NCBI GenBank assembly: GCA_024238995.1
Contig: JANBVL010000003.1
Location: 6,098 to 70,097 of the forward strand
Reading direction: 5' to 3'
Length of the DNA: 64,000 bases
Source of the DNA: Patescibacteria group bacterium
GTDB taxonomy: Bacteria; Patescibacteriota; Minisyncoccia; Minisyncoccales; JANBVM01
Shown here piece by piece: positions 28,650 through 62,478 of this stretch (the stretch's first letter is position 1; every line of letters begins with the position of its first letter). Under the pieces are notes generated by a model that saw nothing but the letters and a program-made list of their open reading frames with translations, ran no database searches and was not told the origin of the DNA. Made by a program: the position numbers and the translations under genes.

Positions 28650-28650
28650 T

Positions 28651-28686
28651 AACCAAAAACCGCGTCGTTACACGTGGTTTTTGGTT
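28651..28686. terminator. bidirectional hairpin terminator between rnpB (+) and rnhA (-)
   Basis: A 14-bp stem AACCAAAAACCGCG / CGUGGUUUUUGGUU (one G-U pair) with an 8-nt loop. The U-rich 3' arm is present in either orientation. Confidence 0.6.
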
Positions 28687-33054: not shown

Positions 33055-33056
33055 AA

Positions 33057-41102: not shown

Positions 41103-42201
41103 ACTTAACTCTTCTTGGTCTTTTACCCAGATAATTGAAAATGTATAAAGCAGCGCCTAATTTAGGTGATTTTTCAATAGTTTTTTTATTAATAAATTTA
41201 GTCATTCTTTTTAAAACAACTTCATCTTCCTTGTACAACTTAATATGAGGGTAATAAACTTTATTTAGAATCAATTCATTAATAATTAGATTATTTTTTG
41301 AAAAGAATTCTTGCAGAAACAAAAACCTATTTCCTATTGCCTCATCTCCTATCTCTAAAAACACAAAGCCACCATCTTTTCCTAACTGATCTGTGCCAAA
41401 CTTAATAAATGTTTTGATTCCATCTTCTGTATAAATTGGGTTGGCTAAAAATCCAACAAAGTTTTCTTTTAAATCTTTTTTCTTACTTAAATCAACTTTT
41501 TTAGTTTTAATTTTTAAGTCAAACTTCTTGGCCAAGATATCAATACATTCTAAAAGTTGAGTATCAATGTCAATTGCCAGGCATTCAATATTTGGATCAG
41601 CTAAAGTCAGAATAACTGAAATAAAGTCATCATCACCGACAAGTAGAAACTTTTTGTTAAAAGGAATCTTTGCAAGTATTTTCTCTGCAACAAAAAATGC
41701 AGATTCAGCTGATATTGGCATTTGGTCCCATTTAGCTTTAACTTTAAATCTTTCAAACTTTTTAAATAAATTAATAACTGCTTGTTTGTCTTGAGCTTTA
41801 ATTTTTAATTTCTTTTCAACAACACTTTTAATCTGTTTGGCGGTTTGAGGTTTGGGAATAAACTTTTCAATTCTTTTTTTAAGTAAAGTAGTTTTTCCAT
41901 TTCTTGAAACTTTAATTATTTTTTCATCTGTTAAAAGTTTCAGATAAGGATATAGATCCCAGTCTTCTAAGGCTTCTTTTGTAATAAATTCAAAAACATT
42001 GTCAGAATAAATTATTGTTTTGATGTCATGCAAAAACCCTAAGAATGTAGGTTTGTAATAATTATCATAAAACTCACCAAGAATCTTATCTGACACCTTC
42101 AAATCCTCAAGGCTTGTTGAGTGCTTTTTTCTGTCTTCAATAAACCTTGTTTTCTGAGATTTTAAAAATCTGATATATAGTTTTTTAAAATATTTTTCCA
42201 T
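41074..42201 (-). CDS. DUF43/BpsA-like aminopropyltransferase (branched-chain polyamine synthase homologue)
   Basis: 375 aa. LLVGDDDFISVILTL, LAIDIDTQLLECI and FVGFLANPIYTEDGIKTFIKFG align by eye with the recalled BpsA blocks VLGDDDLTSVAL, VLDIDERL and FDTFITDPPETVEAIRAFVGRG. The DPP triad is replaced by NPI. Confidence 0.6.
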   Translation of the reverse strand: MEKYFKKLYIRFLKSQKTRFIEDRKKHSTSLEDLKVSDKILGEFYDNYYKPTFLGFLHDIKTIIYSDNVFEFITKEALEDWDLYPYLKLLTDEKIIKVSRNGKTTLLKKRIEKFIPKPQTAKQIKSVVEKKLKIKAQDKQAVINLFKKFERFKVKAKWDQMPISAESAFFVAEKILAKIPFNKKFLLVGDDDFISVILTLADPNIECLAIDIDTQLLECIDILAKKFDLKIKTKKVDLSKKKDLKENFVGFLANPIYTEDGIKTFIKFGTDQLGKDGGFVFLEIGDEAIGNRFLFLQEFFSKNNLIINELILNKVYYPHIKLYKEDEVVLKRMTKFINKKTIEKSPKLGAALYIFNYLGKRPRRVKFDKPFYAYL

Positions 42202-46682: not shown

Positions 46683-48683
46683 CTAATCTAATTCAATGCC
46701 TAAAGCTTTGTAAATTTCAGTTACTTTTTTAACATCTTCTGCGTTATTTCTCCAATTATAGCCAGCTGCTTCTGCATCTTTAACTTTCTCAAGGGCTTGC
46801 TCGTATTGACCTGTTATGTAATAAACCGTGGCTAAATACCAATGGGATCGGGCCATTCTTGGCTCCAATTCAATTGCCTTTTTAAACAAATCAAAAGTTG
46901 CTTGACTTTCACCTTGCGCCAGCTTCACTTCAGCTAAATGCCAGTAACCCTGCTGATTGGTAGGGCTTAATTCTATTGCTTTTTCAAAAACCCGTTCTGC
47001 TGAATCCAATTTTTCCTTGTCAAGACTAAAACGATAATCAGTGAAATAAAGTCTGCCTAAAAAAAGATAGGGGCGGAAATCTAAAGAATTCTTTCTAATG
47101 CTTTCCTCCATTTGCTCTTCACCGATATCAAAAGCTAGTTTCACAGCCTCTTTATCATTTTGAGAATTAAAAGTAGACTGATAAATTTTCAAAGCAAACT
47201 GTTCTCTAATTTCATATTTTTCCATTAAAGTGTTTAATGATTTTTTATAAGCCACCGTCATCTCTTCTGGATTATCAGAAGCAATAACTATTTCAACAAC
47301 ACTTACAGCGCTTGAAAATGGCTGGATATTGCCAAAATAAAGAAGCAAAGTAGTTAATGATATGATAAGGCCAAAAACAATATTTCGTCCCAATCCTTCT
47401 TTAATAAAATTAGATGGCTCTTCAGCTGAATCTGAAAAGGAATATTTTTCTTCATTTATTAAAAAACTAACAAATCCTAAACTTAAAAAGAATACTGTAT
47501 AGCTTGAAATCATATCAAAAACAAGCAGATTTTGGGCAAAGTAAATAATTAATAAAGCTGCCATTATTAAACAAGGCATCATGTTTTCTTCTTTTTTTAA
47601 ACAGATTTTAAAAAGTGCGAAAATGGAAACTGCGAAAATCAATAAATGACTTAAAAGCCCGATTACCCCACTATTTACCAAAGTATCTAAGACAATATTA
47701 TGAACCCTGTCAAACCAAATCTCTCCCCCGCACTCTGATAGGAATACACAGGGATTAAAGAATTTAGTAAAAACTACATTAAAATTCTCTGGCCCCCAAC
47801 CAAAGATTGGTTTTTCTAAAAATCCTTTCCAGCCTTTTTCCCAAACAACAAATCTTGGCTTCATGTCTTTTAAGACGTTTCCAACTCTGTCTTTAAGAAA
47901 AGAGGGTTGAATAACCAGTGCAGCAATGGCTAAAATCACTAAACAAAGAATCAAACCAGTTCCTATTTTTTGAAGCTTTTTTTTCTTAGAAAACAGTAAA
48001 TAACCCAATAATATTAGAAACAGACCAAACCAAAAAGAAATAATTGCTCCTCTAGCAGTAGATATTAATAAGGTTGGAATCAAGAAAAGCAGAGATATTC
48101 CAGAAAAAATTCGTAAAAATGAGCTTTTTTTTGTTAAGAACAAGACTAAAGCAAAGAAAATGTCGAAAAGCAGATAAGCTGCCAGAAAAGAGGTATTGCC
48201 AATTGCTCCTCCTCCTCTGCTAGAAAGTTGACTGTTAGTTAAGACACCAATACAAAGAATAATTCCCACCAACACTGACACAGCAAGAATCTTTTCCCAA
48301 TCTTCTCTTTTTTTGAAAGTGCTTGTTAGAATAACAAAAAAAGCTAAGAGGTGAAGAAAAGTAAAAATCCCTGTCATTCTTTCGTAAGTACTCCAAAAAC
48401 TCCTTTCAAAATTAATACCCAAAACAGATGTTACTATCAATACAAAAATGAAGGTCAAAATAGCAGTAAGTATAATATTAGGTTTTGGCCGATAACGAGG
48501 AAACAATAATATCAGGATTAGATAAGCAGCCAGCATAATCTCCACTAAAATCCTGAAATAAATAGTCTTTGGAGTAACAAAAGGAAAAAAAGAATAACGG
48601 TAAACAATTACTGGAGCAAACAAGGCTAAATATGCTCCTGTTTTGATTATGAAAAGACAAATTTTTTTCAATGCTTGAATCAT
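46683..48683 (-). CDS. O-antigen ligase family (Wzy_C) membrane protein fused to C-terminal TPR repeats
   Basis: 666 aa with about 12 TM and the GWGPENF motif after the ligase loop. The C-terminal ~200 aa are TPR-like (AIELSPTNQQGYWHLAEVKLAQG.., AIELEPRMARSHWYLATVYYITGQYEQA). Confidence 0.75.
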   Translation of the reverse strand: MIQALKKICLFIIKTGAYLALFAPVIVYRYSFFPFVTPKTIYFRILVEIMLAAYLILILLFPRYRPKPNIILTAILTFIFVLIVTSVLGINFERSFWSTYERMTGIFTFLHLLAFFVILTSTFKKREDWEKILAVSVLVGIILCIGVLTNSQLSSRGGGAIGNTSFLAAYLLFDIFFALVLFLTKKSSFLRIFSGISLLFLIPTLLISTARGAIISFWFGLFLILLGYLLFSKKKKLQKIGTGLILCLVILAIAALVIQPSFLKDRVGNVLKDMKPRFVVWEKGWKGFLEKPIFGWGPENFNVVFTKFFNPCVFLSECGGEIWFDRVHNIVLDTLVNSGVIGLLSHLLIFAVSIFALFKICLKKEENMMPCLIMAALLIIYFAQNLLVFDMISSYTVFFLSLGFVSFLINEEKYSFSDSAEEPSNFIKEGLGRNIVFGLIISLTTLLLYFGNIQPFSSAVSVVEIVIASDNPEEMTVAYKKSLNTLMEKYEIREQFALKIYQSTFNSQNDKEAVKLAFDIGEEQMEESIRKNSLDFRPYLFLGRLYFTDYRFSLDKEKLDSAERVFEKAIELSPTNQQGYWHLAEVKLAQGESQATFDLFKKAIELEPRMARSHWYLATVYYITGQYEQALEKVKDAEAAGYNWRNNAEDVKKVTEIYKALGIELD

Positions 48684-48746: not shown

Positions 48747-50051
48747 ATGTCAAGTATGAGGAAAATCCTTGTTTTTTTGGGGGATATTTTCTTAATCTAT
48801 CTCTCACTTTTTCTAACCTTATTGTTAGGGTTTTTTGGTGAATTTAGTTTTGAAATATTCTCTTTGCATGTGTTGCCTTTTTCCATTATTTATGTTTTTT
48901 GGTTCATTATTTTCTATATTTTCGGCCTTTACGACCTTCATTTGATTAAAACTAAAACCTCTTTTTATGCCAATACTCTTGGGGCCCTTGCTGTAAGTTT
49001 AGTTCTGGGAATGCTTTTCTTTTATACAGTTCCTTTTTTTGAAATTGCTCCAAAAACCAATTTAGTAATAAATATTTTAATTTTTGGAATCTTGTTTTTA
49101 GGCTGGCGCAGATTATTTTATTCTCTGTTTTCAGTGCACTTTTTAAACAGAACCATAATAATGGGGAAAGGTTCTGAAGTTGAAATATTAAAAGAAGAAA
49201 TTAATGAAAAACCTTATCTCGGCTATAAGATAATTTCAATAGATATAAATAAAGATCTTTTTTCTCAGATTCAAAAACATAACATTGACACAGTGATTTT
49301 CACAGAAGAATTTGAATCAAACCCTGAAATGCTTAAAGCCCTTTATTTTTGTTTACCAGCTAGAGTAAACTTTTTAGAATTTGCTAAAGCTTATGAATTG
49401 ATTTATGAAAAAATTCCGGTCTCAACAGTTTCTCAATCCTGGTTTTTAGAGAATATAAAGGAAAGAGAGAAAAGTTTTTATGATGAAACAAAAAGGATTT
49501 TTGATATAATTTCAGCCAGCTTTTTATTCATTCTAACTCTCCCCCTTTGGCCTTTTATTGCCATGGCTATTAAATTAGAAGATAAAGGTTATGTATTTTA
49601 TTCTCAGAAAAGAATTGGAAAAGACAGAAATTCTTTTGTTTTATATAAATTCAGGTCAATGAAAGTTGGAGCAGAAAAAGAGAATGCTGTTTGGGCAGAA
49701 AAAGAAGACAAAAGAATAACTAAAGTTGGAAAGTTTTTAAGACAAAGTCATTTAGATGAAATCCCTCAAATGATAAATGTAATAAAAGGAGATATTTCTT
49801 TGGTTGGACCAAGACCAGAAAGGCCAGAGTTTGTTGAAAAACTAGAGAGAGAAATTCCCCATTATCATTTAAGACATCTAGTAAAACCTGGGTTTACAGG
49901 CTGGGCCCAGATAAAATTCAGGTATGGAAGGTCTTTTATAGACAGCCGTAAAAAATTTCAGTATGATTTATATTATTTGAAAAATAGAAACTTTTTGCTT
50001 GATATAGGAATTTTACTTAGAACTTTTCAATTATTTTTTAAAAAAGAATAA
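48747..50051 (+). CDS. polyprenyl-phosphate glycosyl-1-phosphate transferase (WbaP/bacterial sugar transferase family)
   Basis: 434 aa with 4-5 N-terminal TM. The C-terminal Bac_transf domain carries KRIFDI, LYKFRSM, DEIPQMINVIKGDISLVGPRPE. Confidence 0.88.
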   Translation: MSSMRKILVFLGDIFLIYLSLFLTLLLGFFGEFSFEIFSLHVLPFSIIYVFWFIIFYIFGLYDLHLIKTKTSFYANTLGALAVSLVLGMLFFYTVPFFEIAPKTNLVINILIFGILFLGWRRLFYSLFSVHFLNRTIIMGKGSEVEILKEEINEKPYLGYKIISIDINKDLFSQIQKHNIDTVIFTEEFESNPEMLKALYFCLPARVNFLEFAKAYELIYEKIPVSTVSQSWFLENIKEREKSFYDETKRIFDIISASFLFILTLPLWPFIAMAIKLEDKGYVFYSQKRIGKDRNSFVLYKFRSMKVGAEKENAVWAEKEDKRITKVGKFLRQSHLDEIPQMINVIKGDISLVGPRPERPEFVEKLEREIPHYHLRHLVKPGFTGWAQIKFRYGRSFIDSRKKFQYDLYYLKNRNFLLDIGILLRTFQLFFKKE

Positions 50052-50052
50052 A

Positions 50053-50910
50053 ATGAATCAAATAAAAACATCGATCATTATACCAGCCTATAATGAAGAA
50101 AAGGGAATTGAAAAAGTAATTGCGAATGTCAAAAAACATCTTAACCAAGAATGCGAAATAATAGTAGTTAATGACGGTTCCACTGATAGAACTAAAAACA
50201 TACTGGAACAAATGCCTAGTATTAAAGTTATCAATCATCTCGAAAACCGCGGTTATGGAGCGGCTCTTAAGTCTGGTATCCAAAAGGCCCGAGGAGGATA
50301 TGTTCTAATTATTGATGCTGATGGTACCTATCCAACAGAAAGTATCTCTGATTTACTTAACCAAAAAGAGCGTTACGATATGGTAGTTGGAGCTAGAATA
50401 AATCCTCAGAGTCAAATACCTCTTGCCAGAAAGCCAGTTAAATGGCTGCTTACCCAACTAGCCAACTATTTAACAGGAACCAAAATCCCGGATTTAAATT
50501 CCGGACTCAGAATAATTAAAGGAGATGTTTTAAACCAGTTTATTCATCTCTTGCCTGATGGATTTTCTTTTACTACCACCATTACTTTGGCTTTATTGAC
50601 CAATAACTATCAAGTTAAATACTTTCCCATCAATTATTATAAAAGAAAAGGTGAATCAAAGATAAAACCAATTAGAGATACTTTAAATTTTCTTCAACTA
50701 ATAATTAGAACTATCCTTTATTTTAATCCCCTCAAAGTCTTTATCCCAATTAGTTTAATTTTATTCTTGTTAAGTCTGGGAGTTCTAGTCTATAGCTATT
50801 TTTTCACGCCTCAAATAATGGATATTACTATTGTTATTTTTTTCATTTCAGCCATTCAAATATTGGCAATCGGCATGATAGCTGATTTAATTGTTAAAAG
50901 TAGAAAATAA
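50053..50910 (+). CDS. family-2 glycosyltransferase, polyprenol-phosphate sugar synthase-like (GtrB/ArnC/DPM1-like)
   Basis: 285 aa with SIIIPAYNEE, VVNDGSTD and IIDADG (DxD), plus two C-terminal TM helices. Confidence 0.8.
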   Translation: MNQIKTSIIIPAYNEEKGIEKVIANVKKHLNQECEIIVVNDGSTDRTKNILEQMPSIKVINHLENRGYGAALKSGIQKARGGYVLIIDADGTYPTESISDLLNQKERYDMVVGARINPQSQIPLARKPVKWLLTQLANYLTGTKIPDLNSGLRIIKGDVLNQFIHLLPDGFSFTTTITLALLTNNYQVKYFPINYYKRKGESKIKPIRDTLNFLQLIIRTILYFNPLKVFIPISLILFLLSLGVLVYSYFFTPQIMDITIVIFFISAIQILAIGMIADLIVKSRK

Positions 50911-50915
50911 TTATT

Positions 50916-52319
50916 ATGGACATTCTTTTCATTAATCCCCCATCACCGGACAACTCAATTATTATTAGAGATTTCAATCGTTCGGGCAGAACAAGCAAAG
51001 AAAGAATCATTTGGCCTCAAACTAGTTTGGCCTATTTAGCCGCTATGACCCCTGAAAATCTTAAAATAGAAATACTTGACTGTATAGCTGAAAAAATAAA
51101 CTGGGATAAATTTTTGAAGATATTGAATATTAAAAAACCTCGCTATGTGGTATCTCATGTCATAACCTCTACCGCCCGAAATGATTTAAGGGTGTTTGAA
51201 GAAGCAAAAAAGATAGGTGCCATTACTATAACCATGGGTCCTCATGTAACAGAGCTTCCTGAAAAAACATTACGAGAAAACCTTGACCTAGATTTTGTTA
51301 TTGTTGGTGAACCTGAAATTACTTTTAGAGAATTAATTAAAAATCTTGAAACTAAAATCCACGATTTTGGGAAAATAAAAGGTCTGGCCTATCGTATTCA
51401 GGAAAAAATAAAAATAAATGAAAGAAGAGAATTCTTAGCAAATTTAGATGAATTACCTATCCCCCGCCACGACCTGTTGCCTTTGAATAAATATGTTTTT
51501 CCTTTTATGGCTTCCAAATTTACTTTTGTCCTTTCTGAAAGAGGATGTCCTTTCCCTTGTACTTTCTGCCGTCAACCAATTATGTGGGAAAGAAAAATTA
51601 GACACAGATCTCCTGAAAGTATAATCAAAGAATTAAAAATCCTTAAAGAAATAGGATTAAAAGAGTTTATTTTCCATTCAGATACTTTTACCATAGATAA
51701 AGATATAGTTATGAAGCTTTGTCAAATGATGATTAATGAAAACTTTAATTTTAGATGGGCTTGTAATAGTCGAGTAGATACAGTAGACGAAGAAATGCTA
51801 AAATTAATGAAAAAAGCGGGTTGTTGGATGATTGCCTATGGCATTGAGTCAGGATCTCCAGAAATTTTAAAAAAATGTGAAAAGGAAGCCACAGTGGAAC
51901 AAGCAGAAAAAACTGTTAAATTAACTCACGAAAATGGCATTAAAGTCTATGGATATTTCATAATAGGGCTTCTCGGTGAAACCCAAAAAACCATTCAGGA
52001 AACAATTGAATTCTCCAAAAAACTACCTATTACTTTCGCTATTTTCCATATTGCCTCTCCTTATCCTGGAACTAAATTCTATCAACAAGTTAAAGAAAAA
52101 GGATGGTTGGTTTCAGAAAAATGGGAAAACATTGATCAGGGCAGAAATGCTCCTATTCATTATCCTCAACTCTCTGGAAAAGAAATAATGGCTGGAACTA
52201 AAAAAGCTTACAGGTCATTCTATCTAAGGCCAAAAGTAATTTTAAATATCCTATGCTCAATTCGTAATTTTGGAGACCTTGAAGCGCTTTTCCGAGCCGG
52301 AATAGCACAACTTTTCTAA
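50916..52319 (+). CDS. B12-binding-domain radical SAM enzyme (class B)
   Basis: 467 aa. A Rossmann-like domain of about 190 aa precedes the radical SAM cluster motif ERGCPFPCTFC (CxxxCxxC). Confidence 0.75.
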   Translation: MDILFINPPSPDNSIIIRDFNRSGRTSKERIIWPQTSLAYLAAMTPENLKIEILDCIAEKINWDKFLKILNIKKPRYVVSHVITSTARNDLRVFEEAKKIGAITITMGPHVTELPEKTLRENLDLDFVIVGEPEITFRELIKNLETKIHDFGKIKGLAYRIQEKIKINERREFLANLDELPIPRHDLLPLNKYVFPFMASKFTFVLSERGCPFPCTFCRQPIMWERKIRHRSPESIIKELKILKEIGLKEFIFHSDTFTIDKDIVMKLCQMMINENFNFRWACNSRVDTVDEEMLKLMKKAGCWMIAYGIESGSPEILKKCEKEATVEQAEKTVKLTHENGIKVYGYFIIGLLGETQKTIQETIEFSKKLPITFAIFHIASPYPGTKFYQQVKEKGWLVSEKWENIDQGRNAPIHYPQLSGKEIMAGTKKAYRSFYLRPKVILNILCSIRNFGDLEALFRAGIAQLF

Positions 52320-52322
52320 AAT

Positions 52323-53012
52323 ATGAACCAAAAAAATATAAATCAAGAATTAGCTCAATGGAATGATCAAATGGTTAAAAAACACCACTCAAAAGGTGTA
52401 CCCCTTGAAAGTAAAAATATATTTTTAAGAACTATTGAAAAGATGAGATTGAAAAAAATTATTCAACTAGCTCAACTTAAAAAAAATGACCTTGTTTTAG
52501 ACTTAGGATGCGGGGAGGGCTCTTTAATCTCTCTAATGCCTGACCTTCTCCAAAAAATAGTTGGACTTGATATTTCTAAAATTGCTCTAAGCAGAGCTAG
52601 AAAAAATTTAAAAGAAAAAGAGGGAGTTGAATTGAGATTAGGAAATGCCGAGAACTTAGATCTTCCAAATGAATCTTTTGATAAAATTATCTGTTCAGAA
52701 ATGCTCGAACACGTCCCTCGACCCAGAAAGGTTATGAAAGAAATACACAAAATCTTAAAAAACGATGGTCTTCTGGTTATTAGTGTGCCAGATGAAAAAA
52801 GAATACAATTTATTATGAAAATCGCTAAAATTCTCTATTTAAATAAAATATTGGGCGCTTGCCGAGAAGAAGAAGAATATGACTGGCATCTTCATCGAGC
52901 AGATAAAAAATTCATTACTGATATATCTAAAGGACTTTTTGAAATACAAAAAATCTATAGAATCCCGTCTATGATTGGATATCATTTTATAGCCACTCTT
53001 GCAAAAAAATGA
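52323..53012 (+). CDS. class I SAM-dependent methyltransferase
   Basis: 229 aa with motif I VLDLGCGEG and the post-I/II motifs DKIICSEMLEHV. Confidence 0.85.
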   Translation: MNQKNINQELAQWNDQMVKKHHSKGVPLESKNIFLRTIEKMRLKKIIQLAQLKKNDLVLDLGCGEGSLISLMPDLLQKIVGLDISKIALSRARKNLKEKEGVELRLGNAENLDLPNESFDKIICSEMLEHVPRPRKVMKEIHKILKNDGLLVISVPDEKRIQFIMKIAKILYLNKILGACREEEEYDWHLHRADKKFITDISKGLFEIQKIYRIPSMIGYHFIATLAKK

Positions 53013-53998
53013 AAATATCAGTTATTATTGCCACATACAATGATCCTCAACTTAAAAAATGTTTGGATTCTCTGTATGCATCTCAAGACGCAGATTTTGA
53101 AGTGATTGTAATTGATGATGGTTCAACTACGGTGGATGTAGAACAAGTTGTTAATAATTATTCTGCCTATTATTGTTTAAAACTTGAAAAAAACACAGGT
53201 CCGTCCATAAGTCGTAACTTTGGCGCCAAACAGGCTAAGGGTAAGATACTCTTTTTTCTTGATTCAGACGCCCAAGTTTATCCTGATACTTTAATTAAAA
53301 TTCAAAGGCGTTTTGAAAAAGAGCCAAAACTTCAAGGTTTATCTATTATCTGGAGTGATGAACCAATTAAAGACACTTTTTTTAATAAATTTAAAGCAAT
53401 AGAAATGAATTATAATTTTAAACACCTTTTTAATTGTAGCTGGGGCAGTAATGGCTCAGCAATTTATAAGGATATTTTTTTAGCAGAAGGAGGGTTTGAT
53501 GAGAAATTTAGAAAAGTTTATGGTGAAGATTTTTTTCTTGGGTTGAAATTGTTTGGTAAGGGTTATAATATTAGTCTTGATAAAAATATTTTAATGAAAC
53601 ATTGTTTTTATGAAAAATACTTTTTAGGTTTGAAAAAATATTCAATGCGGGCTTTTTTAAGAGCTAGAGAATTAGCTTCAGTAAAAAATAAGCTTGAAAC
53701 AAGCTATAATAGTAAAAGATTCCAGGCTCTTTATTTATTATCAATTTTTACAATATTTTTTGGAATCCTAGGTTTGTTCTTGTCTATACCCTTATTATGT
53801 TTAGTGGCTATTGGCTTGTATCTAATTTTCTTTAATTTAGTTCTTAAACTTTATGTTGCCTTTTATAAAAAGTATGGTCTAACTTTTTTTATTAAAGCTG
53901 TAATAACACATTACTTTTACATTTTATCAATTTCAATTTCAGGTATTTTAGGATTCCTGATTGGTAAGATGTTTAAGAAAAAATCTTATGAATTTTAA
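53009..53998 (+). CDS. family-2 glycosyltransferase with C-terminal membrane helices
   Basis: 329 aa with SVIIATYND, VIVIDDGS and FLDSDA (DxD). The C-terminal ~90 aa are hydrophobic. Confidence 0.8.
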   Translation: MKISVIIATYNDPQLKKCLDSLYASQDADFEVIVIDDGSTTVDVEQVVNNYSAYYCLKLEKNTGPSISRNFGAKQAKGKILFFLDSDAQVYPDTLIKIQRRFEKEPKLQGLSIIWSDEPIKDTFFNKFKAIEMNYNFKHLFNCSWGSNGSAIYKDIFLAEGGFDEKFRKVYGEDFFLGLKLFGKGYNISLDKNILMKHCFYEKYFLGLKKYSMRAFLRARELASVKNKLETSYNSKRFQALYLLSIFTIFFGILGLFLSIPLLCLVAIGLYLIFFNLVLKLYVAFYKKYGLTFFIKAVITHYFYILSISISGILGFLIGKMFKKKSYEF

Positions 53999-55061
53999 AA
54001 AGTATCTCCGTTGGGCAAAAGGTTATTTTGCCCAAATTCCATTTTATACTATTTTTTACATTACCTCGCGCTGTAATGCTCGCTGCGCGCACTGTTTTAA
54101 TTGGAGACTAATTGAAGATTCGCCTAATCGTAAAGAGTTAAGTTTAGAAGAAATAGAAAAAATTGCAAAGAATTGGGGTAATATGCTTATGATTAATCTA
54201 GGTGGTGGTGAGCCATATTTAAGAAATGATATTCCAGAAATTGTGGAGATTTTTAGAAAGTATACCGGAGTTGAAATTGTAGGCGTGCCGTCCAATGGTT
54301 TTTTAACAGAAAAAATCGTGGCTACAGCTGAAGAACTACTTAATCGTTTTACAGATATTCATTTCCGATTTACTTTTTCTATTGATGGTTTGAGTAAAAC
54401 TCATGATAAAATTCGCGGCGTGCCTGGTGGGTTTAAAAAAGTAATTCAAACAGCCAAAGGAGTTAAAAAACTAAAATCAAAATATAAAAATTTTACCTTA
54501 AATACTAATTCATGCTTTATGCAAAATAATCAAGATGAATTAATGGATTTGTTAAAGTACCTTAAAACAGAAATTGATCCTGATACTATGGGTGTAACTT
54601 ATATTCGCGGTGAAGCTAGATTAAGTGAGACTCAACAAAATCTTTATAATCAAAAATATAAAGAAGCGATTGACTATTTAACAGACTTGAAGTATGACAA
54701 ATTTAAAAATCACCCCCTAGCCAATTTTATCTGGGGGGCGACAACTCTTGCGCGACATAAAGTGTTTGAGAATTTAAAAACTGGTAAACGCAATTTTGAG
54801 TGTTATGTTATTAAAAAAATGATAGTTATTGATGACATGGGTGAAGTTAAAATCTGTGAGATGTTGCCAACTTCTCTAGGAAATTTACGTGAGCATGACT
54901 ATGATATTAAAAGAATTGTTACTTCAGATTTGGCTAAAAAAGAATATGAAAAAATAAAAAAACACCAATGCAACTGCACTTGGGAATGTGCCATCCGTAC
55001 AGGCGTAATGTATAATCCTAAAGAATATTTTTCAATTCTAAAATATTTCTTTAAGAAATAA
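53988..55061 (+). CDS. radical SAM protein with C-terminal Cys-rich (SPASM/twitch-like) region
   Basis: The ORF-track start at 53961 is TTG, and ATG at 53988 is preferred. Cluster motif CNARCAHC. SIDGLSKTHDKIRGVPGGF is present. The C-terminal cysteines are CEM...CNCTWECA. Confidence 0.75.
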   Translation: MNFKKYLRWAKGYFAQIPFYTIFYITSRCNARCAHCFNWRLIEDSPNRKELSLEEIEKIAKNWGNMLMINLGGGEPYLRNDIPEIVEIFRKYTGVEIVGVPSNGFLTEKIVATAEELLNRFTDIHFRFTFSIDGLSKTHDKIRGVPGGFKKVIQTAKGVKKLKSKYKNFTLNTNSCFMQNNQDELMDLLKYLKTEIDPDTMGVTYIRGEARLSETQQNLYNQKYKEAIDYLTDLKYDKFKNHPLANFIWGATTLARHKVFENLKTGKRNFECYVIKKMIVIDDMGEVKICEMLPTSLGNLREHDYDIKRIVTSDLAKKEYEKIKKHQCNCTWECAIRTGVMYNPKEYFSILKYFFKK

Positions 55062-55090
55062 TTTTTCCTTGTTAATGAGTCAATAATAAA

Positions 55091-56803
55091 ATGAAAAATA
55101 TTATAAAAATAACAATTTTGGGAGCAGTTATTTTCCTCTTAACCATTTCTGTCTGGTATTCGCTTGTTTTATTTAAAGGTTACACTCCTTATGGGGTGGA
55201 AGTAGGAACCGTTATTTTGGGTCGAAACCTGGCTCAAACCGGAGTATATGGAGCAGAAAACGATCTTAACGTCCTCCTCTCTTCTAATTTGGTTAAAAAT
55301 CAGGCTCATACTTCAGCTCAAGCCAATAAATTCGCCGCTCTGCTTTATGGAGAGTTTTTTAAAATAATGGGACCACTTAGTGAAGAGAATTTAGTTTTAT
55401 TTTCGATATCCCTTCATGCTCTCTCTTTAGTAATTTTCACCTTAATAATCTTTTATTTATTCGGCTTTAAATTATCGCTAATTTTTTCTCTAATCTATAT
55501 GTTATTGCCCTTTATTTGGCAACTTCCTTATCGTTTGGGTACTTACGAATTTGCTTTGTTATTTTTTTCTTTTTTCTTTTTATTTTATCTTTGTGGTACC
55601 AAACAAAAACGCAACTATATTTATTTGGGAATCTCGGGAATTTTCCTTGCTTTAGCTTGTTTATCCCGAGAAACTCTCTTGCTGTTTGTGCCATTTCTTT
55701 TTATCTATTTGTGGGTGGTTAAACAAAAGCGCTATTTACTTTATATTTTTATCCCTTTTATAGCTTTATTTAGTTATCTTTGGCTACCTAACGCCTTAAT
55801 GATTGGAGACGGAGGCAATGTTAATTTACTTCATTTTACTACCCAGTCACCAGACAAATTAAAATCAGCTGATTTTAGCCGTTACGGCCACCTCTTTCCT
55901 GATCCTTATACCTATCATTTCAATAAAGAGGAATTTCTAAAAGATTATCAAAATCAGTTGGACAACGAAAAAATAGATTTTTCTACTAAAGCATATTTAA
56001 TTAAATCCGCTTCCAATATTGGAATTAGATCTCCGGGTTTTTTAGAAAGAATGGGGGTGGGATTAGTTTTGTTTTCCGACCACCTTTTAAGATTCTTCTC
56101 TCTAGAAAAAATTGGAGGACCTTTTATCTTTTTGTTAATGATTTTGGGAATTTACAGCTTGAGGCAAAAAAATAAGCATCTATATGTTTTCACTTTAGGC
56201 TGGATTTTTTCTACTATTTTCCTCCTTTCTTTTTTCATCTTAGCTGCGAGATCACATCTAATGGATTTTGGCTGGGTAATCGCCCTCTTTATCTCCCTGG
56301 GACTAGTAACATTAATTAAAATACTAAATGAATATTTTGGTTTTAAACAAAAAAAATCAACAATTCTCTCCATTATAATTATTGTAATTTTGCTCCATCA
56401 TCTTCTACTGGTTAATCATGCGGCCTGGAACAGATTATTTGATCGGCATCGAATAGATTCGTTAGTCAGGGTATATAGCCAGAAAATTAAAGAATTCAAT
56501 GTTCCTGATGAAGGCGTTATTGCCTCTCCTCTTGAAGTTTCTCATCTCTATCGTCTGAATTATTTAAATAACAAATCTTTGGTCATTTTTCGAGTAGAAA
56601 CTATTGAAGATTTATTGAATAATGGAAAATTGAATTCTGTTTTTGAAAAATTTGAAGTGAAATACATTTTGGGTTATTCCGACGAATTTAGTAAAAAAAT
56701 TATTAATCAAACCCAAGTAGCTAATATTGCCACCGACTCAGCGAAGTTTTTCCAAATCAATGCATCTCTGAATAAAATTTGGTTATTAGATTTAATAAGA
56801 TAA
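55091..56803 (+). CDS. large polytopic membrane protein, possible GT-C-fold glycosyltransferase
   Basis: 570 aa with at least 10 TM and then a soluble C-terminal domain of about 130 aa. The call rests on topology and on context next to a GtrB-like GT2. No diagnostic motif was recognised. Confidence 0.4.
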   Translation: MKNIIKITILGAVIFLLTISVWYSLVLFKGYTPYGVEVGTVILGRNLAQTGVYGAENDLNVLLSSNLVKNQAHTSAQANKFAALLYGEFFKIMGPLSEENLVLFSISLHALSLVIFTLIIFYLFGFKLSLIFSLIYMLLPFIWQLPYRLGTYEFALLFFSFFFLFYLCGTKQKRNYIYLGISGIFLALACLSRETLLLFVPFLFIYLWVVKQKRYLLYIFIPFIALFSYLWLPNALMIGDGGNVNLLHFTTQSPDKLKSADFSRYGHLFPDPYTYHFNKEEFLKDYQNQLDNEKIDFSTKAYLIKSASNIGIRSPGFLERMGVGLVLFSDHLLRFFSLEKIGGPFIFLLMILGIYSLRQKNKHLYVFTLGWIFSTIFLLSFFILAARSHLMDFGWVIALFISLGLVTLIKILNEYFGFKQKKSTILSIIIIVILLHHLLLVNHAAWNRLFDRHRIDSLVRVYSQKIKEFNVPDEGVIASPLEVSHLYRLNYLNNKSLVIFRVETIEDLLNNGKLNSVFEKFEVKYILGYSDEFSKKIINQTQVANIATDSAKFFQINASLNKIWLLDLIR

Positions 56804-56877
56804 ACCTTGTTAGAGAATTGTTCTTTTTGTTTTTACTGTCATAATCTTTAACAGGGTAAAAATAAAGTTCCTAAGAT

Positions 56878-58167
56878 ATGTTTAATGCGTTAAAAATTAA
56901 AATCCGGCGTTTACTTATCTGGTCTCAAAAATATACTCAAACTGATATGATTTATCTAGCTAAAGGAGGGTCATGGCTAACTTTAGGGCAGATAATTTCA
57001 ACAGCTGCCTTTTTTTTGTTGGCAGTAGCTTTCGCTAATTTACTTGACCCTGTCACTTATGGAAATTATAGATATATCCTTTCTTTAGTTGGAGTTTTAG
57101 GTATCTTTACTCTCACTGGAATGAGAACGGCTATAATTCAAGCCGTAGCTCGAGGTTTAGAGGGTTCTTTTTATACTGGTTTTAAAACCAAATTAAAATG
57201 GGGGTTACTGGGAAGCTTAGTTGCCATAGGAGGAGCCATTTACTATTGGATCAAAGGAAATTCTCTTTTGCCTATTCCACTATTTATCTCAGCTATCTTT
57301 TTACCCTTAATGTTGGCTTCCCAAGTATACGGTGGTTTTCTAGTTGGGAAAAAATTATTTGATATTCAGGTAAAATACAATACCCTCAGTCAAATCGTTT
57401 CTGCTGGAACATTAATTGGTGCTCTATTTTTAACCAAAAACCTGTTTTGGTTAATTACAATTTATTTTGTTTCCCGCACCTTTTTAAATTACTTCTTTTA
57501 TTTCTTAACCAAATCAAAATTTAAACCAAACAAAAAAGAGGATCCTCAAACCCTCTCCTACGGAAAACATATGAGTTTGCTTGGAGTTTTAATTACCGGA
57601 GCTTTGTATCTGGACAGAATTTTAGTCTTCCATTACTTAGGAGCAGTTCCACTTGCAATTTATCATTTTGCTATCACCCCTGTTGAACAGCTTTGGTCCT
57701 TTTTAAAAAACTTTCAACCTCTAGCTTTATTCAAACTAACCATTAGAAGTAAAGAAGAAATTAACAAAAATCTATACAAAAGGACATTTCAGTTGCTATT
57801 CATCGGAGGAATAATTGTTTTAGCCTATGTTCTGATTGCTCCCTTTCTTTACAGAATATTATTTCCCAAATATTTAGAGTCAATTTTCTTTTCCCAATTA
57901 TTTTCCTTAACAATCCTATTTAAATTGGCTGGTCTTTTCGTTGGAACAATATTTCCCTCTCATAAATTAATAAAGTCCCAATATATCGGGGTAATTTCTT
58001 CTCATTTATTTCTAATTATATCTCTTTTAGTTTTGGGAGCTCTATGGGGAATTATCGGTATCATGACAGCTAAAATTTTATTTAGTTTTTTTGCTCTTAT
58101 TATTGATATTATTCTCTGGCAGAGAGAAATAAAAAAAGCACGAATCAAGAAAATCAAGCCTATTTAA
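56878..58167 (+). CDS. oligosaccharide flippase (Wzx/MOP superfamily)
   Basis: 429 aa with about 12 TM and a Wzx-like N-terminus (YLAKGGSWLTLGQIISTAAFFLLAVAFANLL). Confidence 0.65.
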   Translation: MFNALKIKIRRLLIWSQKYTQTDMIYLAKGGSWLTLGQIISTAAFFLLAVAFANLLDPVTYGNYRYILSLVGVLGIFTLTGMRTAIIQAVARGLEGSFYTGFKTKLKWGLLGSLVAIGGAIYYWIKGNSLLPIPLFISAIFLPLMLASQVYGGFLVGKKLFDIQVKYNTLSQIVSAGTLIGALFLTKNLFWLITIYFVSRTFLNYFFYFLTKSKFKPNKKEDPQTLSYGKHMSLLGVLITGALYLDRILVFHYLGAVPLAIYHFAITPVEQLWSFLKNFQPLALFKLTIRSKEEINKNLYKRTFQLLFIGGIIVLAYVLIAPFLYRILFPKYLESIFFSQLFSLTILFKLAGLFVGTIFPSHKLIKSQYIGVISSHLFLIISLLVLGALWGIIGIMTAKILFSFFALIIDIILWQREIKKARIKKIKPI

Positions 58168-59248
58168 CATAATTTTGGAAAACTTTTTCCAATTTATCAG
58201 TTGAACAATCCCAACCGAAATCCTGAATAAAATCATAGCCATTCTCTGCAATTTTCTTTCGTTCTTTTGGATTTTCTATTAATCTAATGATATTTTCTGA
58301 CATTGCTTTTACATCCTTAGGTTTAGAAACTAAAGCTGTTTTTCCCGGAATTGTATAATCAGGCACTCCCCCTACTTCGGTCGCCACCACAGCACATTTA
58401 CAAGCCATTGCTTCCATCGGAGGAAGACCAAATCCTTCGTTGTGGCTGGGAAAAACAAAAATGTCAGAGGAATTATAGATTTTTCTTAATTTCTCTCCAT
58501 AAGGCATTTTGTGGAATTCTATGTCTGAAGAGATTTTTTCTTTTGGCTCAGGTCCAAACATCACGATTTGAATGGTAGGATATCTTTGTTTTGCAATTTT
58601 GCAAGCCGCAAGCCCATCTTCTATACCTTTCCATTTTACTCTACGGTAAGGCAGTAAAATTCTGATTCTATCGCTCTTTCTCTTCATGTTCTCTGGGTAA
58701 AACTGCTCTAGATTAACACCGTTTGGTATTACCACTTCAATTTTTGCTTTTAACTTCTCTTTGAGAATCTCTTTTATCCAATTTGAAACAACAATATTGC
58801 GAAGCCCAAGTTGAGTGTAAGTAGCATTTACCTTATTTTCCGGACCGCACCAAATTTCGTAATGTTGAATGAAATAAAATTTTTCGCCTTTGTCTTGATG
58901 GTATTTACTCACTTCGTAAGCCGTTTCCCATCTAGTCGCTATCACTACATCAGCTTGAGGAATATACCTTTCATTAAAAGTCGGGACTTTAAGCAATTTT
59001 GCTTTTAAAGGAAACCATTTAACTGAATTCGGCCGAATAGAATTTAAAACTGAATTTTTGATTTTTCCGTATAATCTTTTAAAACTATAAAAATCAAAAC
59101 CCCATTTTCTTGAAGAAATAGATAAGGGCACTATAGGATATATTATGCAGACTTCGTGTCCTCGATTATGGAGACGATTAGCATGCTCAAACACAACCCT
59201 TACCCCTCCGCTTACTGCCGTGTTCTTTAAAAGAAAAATTATTCTCAT
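58160..59248 (-). CDS. family-4 (GT-B) glycosyltransferase
   Basis: 362 aa with the EX7E region FPSHNEGFGLPPMEAMACKCAVVATEVGG. Confidence 0.85.
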   Translation of the reverse strand: MRIIFLLKNTAVSGGVRVVFEHANRLHNRGHEVCIIYPIVPLSISSRKWGFDFYSFKRLYGKIKNSVLNSIRPNSVKWFPLKAKLLKVPTFNERYIPQADVVIATRWETAYEVSKYHQDKGEKFYFIQHYEIWCGPENKVNATYTQLGLRNIVVSNWIKEILKEKLKAKIEVVIPNGVNLEQFYPENMKRKSDRIRILLPYRRVKWKGIEDGLAACKIAKQRYPTIQIVMFGPEPKEKISSDIEFHKMPYGEKLRKIYNSSDIFVFPSHNEGFGLPPMEAMACKCAVVATEVGGVPDYTIPGKTALVSKPKDVKAMSENIIRLIENPKERKKIAENGYDFIQDFGWDCSTDKLEKVFQNYVK

Positions 59249-60354
59249 TATTTTTTATAAAATTTTCCTGTGAGTTTTTTTAGAAGAAGGTCTAGATGTT
59301 TAAAATTAAACATTAAATTAGGGAAAAAGCTAGAAGAAAAACTCCATCCTACGCCCCAAGAATTTAAACATCCTTTACAATTCTTTACACATTTCCTGGC
59401 ATTTTTAGCTTCTAAACTGTTCCATATTTCGGTAGGAGTTTTTTCTCTTACATTCCCAGCACTAGTCTCCCATAAACTCAAGCAAGGAACAATGTCTCCA
59501 TTGCATTTCAGAACGCAAAATGTATACATACCGAAACAATTAAATTTAATCGAACCTCCTTTTAGCCAATTAATCCACATGTCATTAAGAGGTTCGGTAG
59601 GAAGAGATTCTACAATTTTTATCATTTTCTCGCCAAGATGTTTCTTGTCAACTAAATCTCTTCCAACATTATCATAAAATGAAGATTCACTAAACCATTG
59701 AACCACCAATCCTACTTGCATTTTTTCAGCATAGTCTTTGACATCTTCAAAAGAATCAATTGTTAAATTTGAAAGAGTATATCCAATTACTGGAAAAACT
59801 TTATTTGTATTTTTCCTTAAAGCCACTAATTCTTTTAATAATCTGTCTGCATTTCTAAAGTTGCCTTTAACGCCTCTTACTGAATCATGCTTCTCTCCGA
59901 TTCCATCTATTGAAACTCCGACTTTTAAAGGAATGTCGTGAGAAATAACCTCATTAACTACTTTAATTACCCTGTCTACAGCTATACCATTGGTGCTTAA
60001 GTGCAACTGAGCATGTGGCAAGGCTTTATTTATTGCAAGATAAAATTCTACAATATCTGGACGTAGAACCACTTCTCCTCCAGAAATTATAATATATTTC
60101 AAATCAGAAAAAACAGGGTCTTTAAATGTGCGTTCTATCTCTTGTGGAGTTAATGAATTTTCTGTTGGCTTTTTTTTCCATATACTACAATGGGTACAAC
60201 GAGAATTGCACTTATCAGTAGCTTCAAACCACATCCATCTTGGCTTAAGAGAAGTTTTTTCCCCACTTCTTAAAATTAAGTGTTTAGCTCCTGAAAACGT
60301 ACCTTTAAAAAGTTTTTTAAAAAGTTTAGGGTAGATACCAAATTGTTTTTCCAT
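59248..60354 (-). CDS. radical SAM protein with C-terminal Cys-rich (SPASM/twitch-like) region, paralogue of 53988-55061
   Basis: 368 aa with cluster motif CNSRCTHC, SIDGIGEKHDSVRGVKGNF, and C-terminal cysteines CFGMYTFCVLKCNGDIVPC...CVKNCKGC. Confidence 0.75.
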   Translation of the reverse strand: MEKQFGIYPKLFKKLFKGTFSGAKHLILRSGEKTSLKPRWMWFEATDKCNSRCTHCSIWKKKPTENSLTPQEIERTFKDPVFSDLKYIIISGGEVVLRPDIVEFYLAINKALPHAQLHLSTNGIAVDRVIKVVNEVISHDIPLKVGVSIDGIGEKHDSVRGVKGNFRNADRLLKELVALRKNTNKVFPVIGYTLSNLTIDSFEDVKDYAEKMQVGLVVQWFSESSFYDNVGRDLVDKKHLGEKMIKIVESLPTEPLNDMWINWLKGGSIKFNCFGMYTFCVLKCNGDIVPCLSLWETSAGNVREKTPTEIWNSLEAKNARKCVKNCKGCLNSWGVGWSFSSSFFPNLMFNFKHLDLLLKKLTGKFYKK

Positions 60355-60377: not shown

Positions 60378-61382
60378 TTAATAATCATTTTTTGACTTTC
60401 TGCTGGATACAAGCTCAATAACCATAACACCATTTTTAACTCTAGCAATTCTACCGAAGCCCCAGACAAGAAATGCAGGTATACCAGCAATAATAAAGTT
60501 CTTTAGTTTAGCTGCTTTTTGAACTAACCTAGTGAATAATTTAGGTCTAGACGGAAAATCCTGAGCAGGTTGAGTTTGAATACTAGAAATCTGTTTATTT
60601 TGAACAGGCTTATTATTTTTTTTAACTAAACCAAATCGAGCTTTTTCTGAAAATAACTCAAACAAATGAAAAAATTGATCAACATAATGAATGAACGATA
60701 TCTTAAAATCAATTTTTTTAAAAAGATTAGACATTGCCTCTTTGTTCCATCGACTTATATGCCATGGAGGAAAATCCCATTCATACATATCTGTCAAGAA
60801 CCTTTCCCTTGAAGGTGTACTTAAAACAATCTTGCCTTTGGGCGCCATGTGCCTTTTAATTCCTTGTATAAAACTTAAAGGATCATCTAAATGCTCAATT
60901 ACTTCAAAAGAAGTAATGATGTCAAATTTGGGCAAGTCTTTCTCTTGAAAAAATTCTTCAAGCTCCATGGCAAAAAGATTTTGGAGGTTGAATTTATCTT
61001 TTGCTGTCTTGATAGCTGATTTAGTAAGGTCAACTCCCCAGCATTCACAACCGCGCTTCTGAAGCTCATAAAGAAATTCGCCTCGTCCGCAACCTATATC
61101 TAAAACTTTTGTATTCTTAGGAAAGACAGGATATAGTGCTAAAAACTTTTTGTGATAACCTCGATAAAGACGGGGTTCTTTTGTAGTGGCAGTAGTGTAT
61201 TTTTCTTGAGCTTCATACCATTTAGCTCCTGGATTCTTGAATGGCTCCCAAAACTGAACGCTACATTTTACGCACTCATAAAGCGAAAAATCATTCTCTC
61301 TCAGTGAATAATCTCTTAAAAATTCAAAGTTGTTTCCTTCCTTACAGATTGGGCAAATTTTAGGTGATGGCTTTAAGGGCAT
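60378..61382 (-). CDS. class I SAM-dependent methyltransferase with N-terminal zinc ribbon
   Basis: 334 aa with CPICK..x..CVKC (a four-Cys ribbon), motif I VLDIGCGRGEF and ITSFEVIEHL. Confidence 0.8.
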   Translation of the reverse strand: MPLKPSPKICPICKEGNNFEFLRDYSLRENDFSLYECVKCSVQFWEPFKNPGAKWYEAQEKYTTATTKEPRLYRGYHKKFLALYPVFPKNTKVLDIGCGRGEFLYELQKRGCECWGVDLTKSAIKTAKDKFNLQNLFAMELEEFFQEKDLPKFDIITSFEVIEHLDDPLSFIQGIKRHMAPKGKIVLSTPSRERFLTDMYEWDFPPWHISRWNKEAMSNLFKKIDFKISFIHYVDQFFHLFELFSEKARFGLVKKNNKPVQNKQISSIQTQPAQDFPSRPKLFTRLVQKAAKLKNFIIAGIPAFLVWGFGRIARVKNGVMVIELVSSRKSKNDY

Positions 61383-61446
61383 AAATGCTTAATATTTTTA
61401 AAATATGATAAACATACTAACAAAAAAATAGAAGAAAGACAAACTT

Positions 61447-62478
61447 TTAAATTATCTTGATCAATTGTTTTGCAATTTGTTGAATTGAAAACTTTTTTTT
61501 AATATCGTTTTGAGCTTTTCTGCCTAATTTTTCCCGTAGTTTCTGGTCGGATAGCACTAATTTTATTTTTTCACACCATTCGTTAGTTGTATCTGCTAAA
61601 AAACCATTTTCTCTGTCTTTAATAATAAAACTATTTTCTCCGAAGTTAGATGCAATCGGAGGAACAGCACAAGCCATATATTCAATTGTTTTAGCATATT
61701 TAGCTCTATTTAAGTCATTTTCTATAAGCGGCATTATGCCGATATCAAATTTCTGAATTTCTCGAAAAACGTCTTTAGCACTAACCCAGTCGACAAATTC
61801 AACTTGTAGTCCTGTGATACTATTAAATAAATTGTAGATTCTTTTTTCACCTCTGGCTCCAATTAGTCGAAACTTAAACTTAACATTATCTTGTATTAAA
61901 TTATCAAAAACAGGCTTTAATAATTTAAGACTTTCGACATGAACAAGACCGTCGCCAACCCAACCAATTATAAGAGGAGTATTCTTTATTCCATAGTCTT
62001 TAGTGAAAGATGAATACATAGAAGAAGGGATAGCATCAGGAAGATAAAAAGATTGAGAATTATATTTCTTTACCCAATCTAAAACAAAATGACCCCCACA
62101 TGTTACTTTTTTGGCTAATTTTACGAAAATAAATGTTTTTATGGGAGAGTGGGTAAATATCGCATCGTCAAGATCAAAAATAAATTCTTTTCTGAAAAAG
62201 ATTCTTGCAAATATTACTGCCAGGAAGAAATATTTATTATAAATTGTCCGCTGTAAAAAACATGTATCGCCTTTTTTGAGAGAAATCAAGAGTTTTAAAT
62301 ATTTAAAAAAAGATTTTATGTTATCAAAGAATGAATTATTTTTTTTCCAGTCAAAATCTAACGGATAAACCTTTGCCTTATAACCCAGTCTGTTGAGCTC
62401 TTCAGCTAGAAAATAAGCTCTGTAACGAGAGCTGGCTATTTTTTTGTTGCCTTTTGAAAAAAAATATATTGTGCTCAT
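61447..62478 (-). CDS. GT-B-fold glycosyltransferase
   Basis: 343 aa. The C-terminal nucleotide-sugar-binding region KTIEYMACAVPPIASNFGENSFIIKDRENGFL resembles GT4/GT1. Confidence 0.6.
   Translation of the reverse strand: MSTIYFFSKGNKKIASSRYRAYFLAEELNRLGYKAKVYPLDFDWKKNNSFFDNIKSFFKYLKLLISLKKGDTCFLQRTIYNKYFFLAVIFARIFFRKEFIFDLDDAIFTHSPIKTFIFVKLAKKVTCGGHFVLDWVKKYNSQSFYLPDAIPSSMYSSFTKDYGIKNTPLIIGWVGDGLVHVESLKLLKPVFDNLIQDNVKFKFRLIGARGEKRIYNLFNSITGLQVEFVDWVSAKDVFREIQKFDIGIMPLIENDLNRAKYAKTIEYMACAVPPIASNFGENSFIIKDRENGFLADTTNEWCEKIKLVLSDQKLREKLGRKAQNDIKKKFSIQQIAKQLIKII

Follow-up and report, generated by a model that had tools for sequence, protein, structure and literature searches.

A conserved gene cassette of a lipid-carrier glycosyltransferase and an uncharacterised B12-domain radical SAM enzyme that probably edits a cell-surface sugar

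C-methylation is the commonest reaction of class B radical S-adenosylmethionine (SAM) enzymes, and the editing of a sugar while it is held on a lipid carrier has precedents in ArnC/ArnD/ArnT and in DprE1/E2. The described class B C-methylases (MoeK5, GenK and Fom3, with structures of TokK, CysS and MgmA/QCMT) carry a B12-binding-type domain followed by a CxxxCxxC motif. MoeK5 and GenK are C-methylase precedents in the biosynthesis of sugar-containing products (PMC9204698), in the case of MoeK5 the lipid-linked saccharide moenomycin. HpnJ and Cds are the precedents for ring contraction (PMC13459092, PMC9204698), and in a published network HpnJ shares a cluster with Fom3 and MoeK5 under a stringent threshold (PMC9204698). 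The sugar 1,2-diol dehydratase AprD4 does not bind cobalamin and yet lies inside the sequence network of the B12-radical SAM enzymes, as does the likewise cobalamin-free ArsL (PMC12931638). Three-component glycosylation systems, which combine a GtrB/ArnC-type family 2 glycosyltransferase (GT2), a flippase and a GT-C enzyme, have been described (PMC11127046). Here we compare with these systems a glycan locus of a Patescibacteria group bacterium, found in a window of 64,000 nucleotides (the whole stretch of DNA analysed; contig JANBVL010000003.1, positions 6,098 to 70,097). Its central gene encodes a 467-residue radical SAM (rSAM) protein and lies between a GT2 gene, which we call GT2a, and a gene for a class I methyltransferase (MT). 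The three genes probably edit a cell-surface sugar. More specifically, we tentatively propose, at somewhat less than an even chance, that they form a conserved cassette which tailors a sugar linked to a lipid carrier before its export.

The rSAM protein has the class B-type architecture that had been read from its sequence in an initial annotation of this DNA. The B12-binding domain (PF02310) was matched over residues 33-140 with 42.2 bits (gathering score 32.1) and Radical_SAM (PF04055) over residues 209-366 with an E-value of 1.5e-31. In the AlphaFold2 model (mean predicted local distance difference test score, pLDDT, 91.5) a Rossmann-like N-terminal domain of five strands and five helices precedes the radical SAM barrel. 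The cysteines of the CxxxCxxC motif (C211, C215 and C218) are invariant across 27 aligned homologs, and so is an N-terminal signature, NPPSP...IRDxNRSGRxSxE..WPQ..LAYLAA, which in the model forms a beta-hairpin inserted after strand 1 and of which HpnJ shares only a part. The invariant Arg-rich hairpin (IRDxNRSGRxSxE, residues 16-29) occupies the site at which B12 domains canonically carry DxHxxG, and three further invariant cysteines, C56, C269 and C303, lie outside CxxxCxxC. The E-values and the 2,666 database homologs of the protein exclude a chance similarity; an identical protein is recorded from a Patescibacteria MAG (metagenome-assembled genome).

Profile searches placed the protein nearest to HpnJ, at a considerable distance. 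The best NCBIfam match was the HpnJ model (TIGR03471; 282.5 bits over residues 4-448, cutoff 577.6), followed by BchE (TIGR02026; 174.6 bits, cutoff 481), while the AprD4 model (NF033070) reached 135 bits against a cutoff of 500 and matched the radical SAM core only (residues 171-402). All 27 aligned homologs scored HpnJ first (best E-value 5e-92) and BchE second, ahead of every methylase model present. Identity to genuine HpnJ proteins, encoded on Paraburkholderia and Mycetohabitans plasmids, is about 30-32% from end to end, and identity to BchE about 26%. In a neighbour-joining tree the homologs formed one clade with HpnJ outside it in 197 of 200 bootstraps; HpnJ together with an rSAM protein from a Lawsonia plasmid was the nearest sampled sister, but joined the family in only 81 of 200. 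Both the direct comparison and the tree were made without Fom3, MoeK5 and GenK sequences. A Streptomyces clavuligerus megaplasmid match, considered as a MoeK5-type reference, was dropped, being an unannotated record with 19% identity over 286 columns. Because its scores lay below the curated cutoffs and the expected contexts were absent (no hpnI, hpnK or shc is annotated in the window, and there are no bch genes), the protein is classified on its sequence as a member of none of the HpnJ, BchE and AprD4 families, and instead as representing a new, well-defined and uncharacterised family within the B12-domain radical SAM class. The initial annotation had counted a grouping with non-methylases against a methylase function; by profile scores the protein largely does fall among them, as a clade of its own.

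The family is widespread. A scan that took one genome per species confirmed relatives in at least 585 species-representative genomes. Among 80 loci kept, Chloroflexota dominate, accompanied by Acidobacteriota, Myxococcota, Planctomycetota, Cyanobacteria, Patescibacteria and metagenome-assembled genomes (MAGs) labelled archaeal. Proteins 50-63% identical to the one in the window, with the same GT2 and MT neighbours, are found in MAGs labelled uncultured archaeon, Micrarchaeota and Methanobacteriota (loci L008, L009, L099, L006/L023 and L010), which points to transfer of the cassette between domains among episymbiont lineages, or to mis-binning.

The most faithful companion of the rSAM gene is GT2a. 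We compared gene order at 81 non-redundant loci from many phyla, 17 of a closer clade and 64 of a distant clade made up mainly of Chloroflexota. In 67 of the 81, a GT2a ortholog is found no more than 1.5 kb from the rSAM gene, with a median gap of 60 nt in the neighbour cluster and mostly on the same strand, while all other neighbours vary. About five of the 14 loci that lack a near GT2a end at a contig edge on its usual side, and two more have it at 1.56-1.75 kb. GT2a aligned over nearly its full length with GtrB (5EKP; 1e-18, residues 4-280) and ArnC (9HWJ; 9e-17, residues 5-278), and over most of it with dolichyl-phosphate mannose synthase (DPMS, 5MLZ; 5e-15, residues 3-237); from these alignments it is assigned as a polyprenyl-phosphate glycosyltransferase. 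Its best NCBIfam matches were AglJ, Dol-P-hexose transferase, PpgS and ArnC. The conserved functional partner of the rSAM enzyme is this upstream GT2 of polyprenyl-phosphate type, and not primarily the methyltransferase to which it had been coupled in the initial annotation. Fusions of rSAM to GT2 or to MT were not found among the relatives; long open reading frames that resembled gene fusions were rejected as over-called starts in high-GC genomes.

GT2a might, however, adjoin the rSAM gene merely as a fellow member of glycan loci, in which case the enzyme could be a class B protein acting on a soluble nucleotide sugar, on a polyprenyl or other lipid tail, or on a peptide. We think this unlikely, although nucleotide-sugar enzymes (FdtA, a dehydratase and a TylC3-like C-methyltransferase) do occur in the extended locus, the B12-radical SAM lipid methylases HpnP and HpnR exist (PMC13459092), and a related B12-type rSAM protein of about 30-33% identity is encoded in a cluster with PqqD for a peptide that is made on the ribosome and modified after translation (RiPP) on a Clostridium estertheticum plasmid. 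The pairing with GT2a persists in 67 of the 81 loci while other neighbours change, nucleotide-sugar genes are not consistently adjacent to the rSAM gene, and the annotated operon holds no precursor peptide or PqqD-like gene. The C. estertheticum homolog was set aside as a guide to context, since a peptide cluster says nothing about a glycan setting.

The methyltransferase is a clade-specific third member of the cassette. An orthologous MT gene lies within 1.5 kb of the rSAM gene in 16 of the 17 closer-clade loci, against 2 of the 64 distant-clade loci. The MT-bearing closer-clade loci belong to Margulisiibacteriota, Planctomycetota, Myxococcota, Patescibacteria and MAGs labelled Micrarchaeota, and their gene orders are permuted (GT2-MT-rSAM, rSAM-GT2-MT and GT2-rSAM-MT). 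The association of the two enzymes is thus conserved in several phyla within this clade, whereas GT2a is the main partner overall. At the junction in the window the rSAM stop codon (TAA, 52317-52319) is followed by AAT and then by the ATG of the MT gene; this 3-nt gap, and the position of the pair between two GT2 genes, are as had been described, and the MT gene is probably translationally coupled to the rSAM gene. The predicted protein carries motif I (VLDLGCGEG, residues 58-66) and reached no NCBIfam equivalog, the best match being the DVU_1556 family (71 bits, cutoff 155).

The distant clade has other recurrent partners. A hexapeptide acyltransferase accompanies the GT2a-rSAM pair in 46 loci, a Wzy_C/TPR membrane protein is encoded directly downstream of rSAM in 27 of the 81 loci, and there are recurring SIS, GHMP-kinase and HAD genes, reminiscent of a heptose pathway, as well as small EamA-like or LPG_synthase_TM flippase-like genes. 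A widespread Portnoybacteria relative (L100/L101) repeats the order of the window, PGT-GT2-rSAM-MT-LPG_synthase_TM (PGT, phosphoglycosyl transferase), with a flippase-like LPG_synthase_TM gene in the place of the second GT2 gene of the window (GT2b) and a Wzy_C/TPR gene on the opposite strand in the same divergent position. LPG_synthase_TM genes close the cassette in both Portnoybacteria and Planctomycetota relatives. In Margulisiibacteriota (L001/L002) a single, unusually radical-SAM-rich glycan cluster encodes four B12-domain radical SAM paralogs (669, 472, 493 and 495 aa) surrounded by GT2, DUF2304, Trm112-like, epimerase and MT genes. The 27-kb plasmid 1 of the pathogen Lawsonia intracellularis (L089) carries a related cluster with the order GT2-DUF2304-DUF2304-SIS-hypothetical-rSAM-MT-rSAM-MT-MT-MT-MT-GT2-HAD; its rSAM protein groups with HpnJ in 173 of 200 bootstraps, and its context is that of a glycan and not of hopanoids.

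The layout of rSAM, GT2 and LPG_synthase_TM in the relatives matches that of the hopanoid clusters, hpnI(GT2)-hpnJ-hpnK-LPG_synthase_TM, where a GT2 attaches a sugar to a lipid, the radical SAM enzyme remodels the product, and a third, tailoring enzyme is followed by a flippase-like protein. By analogy with HpnJ and Cds, GT2a could glycosylate a membrane lipid and the rSAM enzyme convert the pyranose by ring contraction into a cyclitol head group, a carbocycle of five members, which the MT would cap before an LPG_synthase_TM-like protein flips the glycolipid; the product would then be a membrane lipid and not a glycosyl donor. HpnJ is indeed the best-scoring named family over the full length of the protein, with the same two-domain architecture, about 31-32% identity and a partly common N-terminal insert. 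We nevertheless consider ring contraction distinctly improbable. The score is about half of the HpnJ cutoff, the family forms a separate and well-supported clade whose grouping with HpnJ is weak, and HpnJ does not conserve the residues that are invariant in this family. The partner GT2 resembles GtrB and ArnC and showed no similarity to HpnI by BLAST. The third enzyme is a methyltransferase here and an acyltransferase in the distant clade, whereas that of the hopanoid clusters is the deacetylase HpnK, of which no counterpart is present. Finally, the cassette is associated with GT-C enzymes and not with hopanoid genes. Contraction would destroy the anomeric centre, and it fits poorly because a GT-C enzyme should need an intact glycosyl phosphate.

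The operon (48747 to 58167), whose glycan setting had been correctly recognised, is tightly packed, with gaps of 1, 5 and 3 nt and one overlap of 4 nt (Table 1). It runs in the order PGT, GT2a, rSAM, MT, GT2b, a radical SAM/SPASM enzyme, a large membrane protein and Wzx; GT2a ends 5 nt upstream of the rSAM gene, and the start of GT2b overlaps the MT stop in the sequence ATGA.

Table 1. Genes of the glycan operon and its divergent neighbour in the window
Predicted product	Coordinates	Strand	Evidence and remarks
Wzy_C (O-antigen ligase/polymerase-like) membrane protein with C-terminal TPR repeats	46683..48683	-	Pfam Wzy_C 6e-16 and TPR; divergent from the operon
Initiating phosphoglycosyl transferase (Bac_transf), operon gene 1	48747..50051	+	PF02397 5.7e-65; 1-nt gap to GT2a
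GT2a, GtrB/ArnC/DPMS-like polyprenyl-phosphate glycosyltransferase, C-terminal transmembrane hairpin	50053..50910	+	Glycos_transf_2 2.8e-33
B12-binding-type domain/radical SAM enzyme of an uncharacterised HpnJ-related family, 467 aa	50916..52319	+	Pfam, NCBIfam, tree, AlphaFold2
Class I SAM-dependent methyltransferase (MT), 229 aa	52323..53012	+	Methyltransf_11/25/31, E about 1e-25
GT2b, second family 2 glycosyltransferase, C-terminal region with several transmembrane segments	53009..53998	+	Glycos_transf_2 4.9e-25, Glyco_trans_2_3
Radical SAM/SPASM-type enzyme, second radical SAM protein of the locus	53961..55061	+	Radical_SAM 5e-19; SPASM 1e-3, below the Pfam gathering score
GT-C fold membrane glycosyltransferase, 570 aa	55091..56803	+	Weak PMT_2 match (22 bits); AlphaFold2 and Foldseek
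Wzx-type polysaccharide flippase (Polysacc_synt)	56878..58167	+	PF01943 2.3e-14

The large membrane protein (55091-56803) is a likely extracytoplasmic user of a polyprenyl-phosphate-linked sugar. As a sequence search of the PDB found no match for it, we turned to fold prediction: its AlphaFold2 model (pLDDT 90.2) was matched by Foldseek with a probability of 1.00 to AglB, ArnT, STT3, ALG9/12, PglB and Pmt4, at modest template modelling (TM) scores of 0.33-0.53, and some of its homologs are named GT39. GT-C homologs are also encoded near the cassette in three other loci (L011, L014 and L008) and PMT-family genes in three more (L099, L002 and L004).

Whether the rSAM protein uses cobalamin bears on its chemistry. 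The initial annotation had suggested a search for a DxHxxG motif. None is present in the protein, and the test is uninformative for this class, because all solved B12-radical SAM enzymes bind cobalamin base-off without a His ligand and none uses such a motif (PMC12931638). A published discriminator, the hydrophobic or polar residue under the corrin (W76 in TokK, R69 in TsrM), lies at a position after which our profile alignments start. Among cobalamin domains, the N-terminal domain profile matched that of TokK at 1e-4 and that of OxsB at 1e-3, with weaker matches to 4Q37 and CysS; AprD4 was not matched at E<=10. Since AprD4 is similar in sequence only across the radical SAM core, these matches lead us to rate cobalamin binding as somewhat likelier than its absence. 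No genes for cobalamin biosynthesis, as had been noted, or for its uptake are among the annotated genes of the window, which also holds no cobalamin riboswitch.

The fold nevertheless leaves room for a cobalamin-independent enzyme. The closest solved structure found by Foldseek was AprD4 (PDB 6FD2), with TM scores of 0.81/0.83 over the whole chain; it shares the N-terminal Rossmann-like domain, the radical SAM barrel and the size, and it came ahead of MgmA/QCMT, TsrM, OxsB, CysS and TokK, the class B C-methylases scoring lower (0.64-0.73 normalised to the query). A sequence comparison with the PDB also put AprD4 first (1e-37 to 1e-41, 22-23% identity). On this view the B12-like domain would only shape the substrate pocket and the enzyme would dehydrate or redox-edit a sugar diol. 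AprD4 and ArsL show that such enzymes occur inside the B12-radical SAM network, and freedom from B12 would suit the reduced genomes of Patescibacteria and DPANN, in which the family is found (MAGs labelled Micrarchaeota, Saccharibacteria and Parcubacteria); the window has neither a cobalamin riboswitch nor a transporter. We regard this explanation as improbable. In sequence AprD4 resembles the protein only across the radical SAM core (residues 171-422), the score of the AprD4 model is far below its cutoff, the N-terminal domain matches true cobalamin domains and not that of AprD4, and no AprD3-like reductase is present at the locus of the window or consistently adjacent elsewhere.

Our preferred reading, tailoring of a carrier-linked sugar, would run as follows. 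At the cytoplasmic face of the membrane, GT2a would load polyprenyl phosphate with a monosaccharide taken from a nucleotide sugar. The rSAM enzyme would cleave SAM at its [4Fe-4S] cluster, and the 5'-deoxyadenosyl radical would take a hydrogen from an unactivated carbon of the lipid-linked sugar. The adjacent MT would then methylate a heteroatom (O or N) of the same sugar. Once the tailored product had been flipped, the GT-C enzyme (55091-56803) would attach it, outside the membrane, to the glycan assembled by PGT, GT2b, family 4 glycosyltransferases (GT4), Wzx and the Wzy_C-like protein. Such a pathway resembles the three-component systems in its GtrB/ArnC-like GT2, its GT-C fold transferase, the flippase-like genes of the relatives and a tailoring step placed between loading and transfer, as in ArnD or DprE1/E2. 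It differs in that no system of this kind with a radical SAM tailoring enzyme is described in the literature searched. That three-component glycosylation would here gain its first radical SAM step on the lipid carrier, with an HpnJ-related enzyme rewriting an unactivated carbon of the sugar before export, is possible but doubtful in our estimate.

As to the reaction at carbon, cobalamin-mediated C-methylation appears the single most likely outcome, though we would not put it as high as an even chance; it is preferred because the anomeric phosphate has to be preserved if a GT-C enzyme is to use the product. A radical edit without methylation (deoxygenation, epimerisation or oxidation, for example) comes close behind. 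The methylase function suggested in the initial annotation gains some support from the PF02310 match, from the matches of the N-terminal domain to TokK and OxsB and from the published clustering of HpnJ with Fom3 and MoeK5, and is called into question by the scores of HpnJ and BchE and by AprD4 as the best fold. It remains in keeping with the proposed substrate that AprD4, too, acts on a sugar carbon.

Several observations weigh against the proposal or its parts. The methylase models scored below the non-methylase ones (PhpK 150 bits, MCR glutamine C-methylase 137 bits), which speaks against C-methylation in particular; a conventional TylC3-like NDP-sugar C-methyltransferase is already present in the locus; and the enzyme that comes first by fold contains no cobalamin. 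The sisterhood to HpnJ is weak. Adjacency to GT2a does not distinguish a lipid-linked sugar from its nucleotide-sugar precursor as the substrate. Homologs of the GT-C protein of the window occur in only 5 of the 81 loci, and its operon has no small GtrA/EamA-type flippase or LPG_synthase_TM gene, only a Wzx-type one. We also found no description of the module or of the family in the literature.

The glycan locus contains further tailoring genes and extends beyond the right edge of the window (L098). Radical SAM/SPASM-type enzymes are encoded at 53961-55061 (+) and 59248-60354 (-), giving three radical SAM genes in the locus; neither reached an NCBIfam equivalog cutoff, the best matches, NirJ-like and TIGR04053 models, scoring about 70 bits. 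At 53961 the called start is a TTG that overlaps GT2b by 38 nt, and an internal Met codon at about 53988 may be the true start. The interval 60378-63716 (-) includes a further class I MT (60378-61382), a GT4 and, at 62475-63716 (-), the TylC3/NovU-like NDP-sugar C-methyltransferase (Methyltransf_13 and Methyltransf_14); the protein encoded at 61447-62478 had no database record. The part past the edge encodes FdtA, an epimerase/dehydratase, a further four methyltransferases, another GT4 and an Asn-synthase-like amidotransferase. Methyltransferase genes thus number at least eight over about 25 kb, the TylC3-like one included; the glycan should be heavily methylated, though the count does not tell which enzyme does what.

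The remainder of the window is an ordinary Patescibacteria chromosome, with FtsZ, glycolysis, SecA, MurJ and Fe-S assembly genes. A row of genes at 39235-42201 (-), for a saccharopine-dehydrogenase-like protein, a spermidine synthase and a branched-chain polyamine synthase (BpsA_C domain), suggests the synthesis of long or branched polyamines in this genome. At 31435-34391 (-) a VirD4/TraG-type coupling protein (T4SS-DNA_transf, TrwB) adjoins a DUF8128 protein amid housekeeping genes such as PGK and a sigma-70-type factor. An Rfam scan of the window recovered bacterial class A RNase P RNA at 28298-28651 (+) and three tRNAs (21274-21344, 24086-24158 and 24166-24236, all on the minus strand), with no other family above threshold.

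Most B12-domain radical SAM enzymes are uncharacterised, and the few non-methylases among them (HpnJ, BchE and OxsB) are mechanistically obscure. The family described here is abundant and sharply defined, and the product of its GtrB-like GT2 provides a built-in hypothesis for the substrate, which makes it a tractable route to a new sugar modification. The proposal concerns a cassette spread across phyla, with 585 species as a lower bound and Patescibacteria, Chloroflexota and MAGs labelled DPANN archaea among its carriers. If the enzyme acts on a lipid-linked sugar, radical chemistry would join the known repertoire of three-component glycosylation. For ultra-reduced symbionts it would mean either that cobalamin is routinely scavenged to build envelope glycans, as the initial annotation had envisaged, or that a B12-type domain has taken on a role that needs no cobalamin. 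The family thus bears on surface decoration in uncultivated Patescibacteria, DPANN archaea and Chloroflexota, and on whether genome-reduced symbionts depend on scavenged cobalamin.

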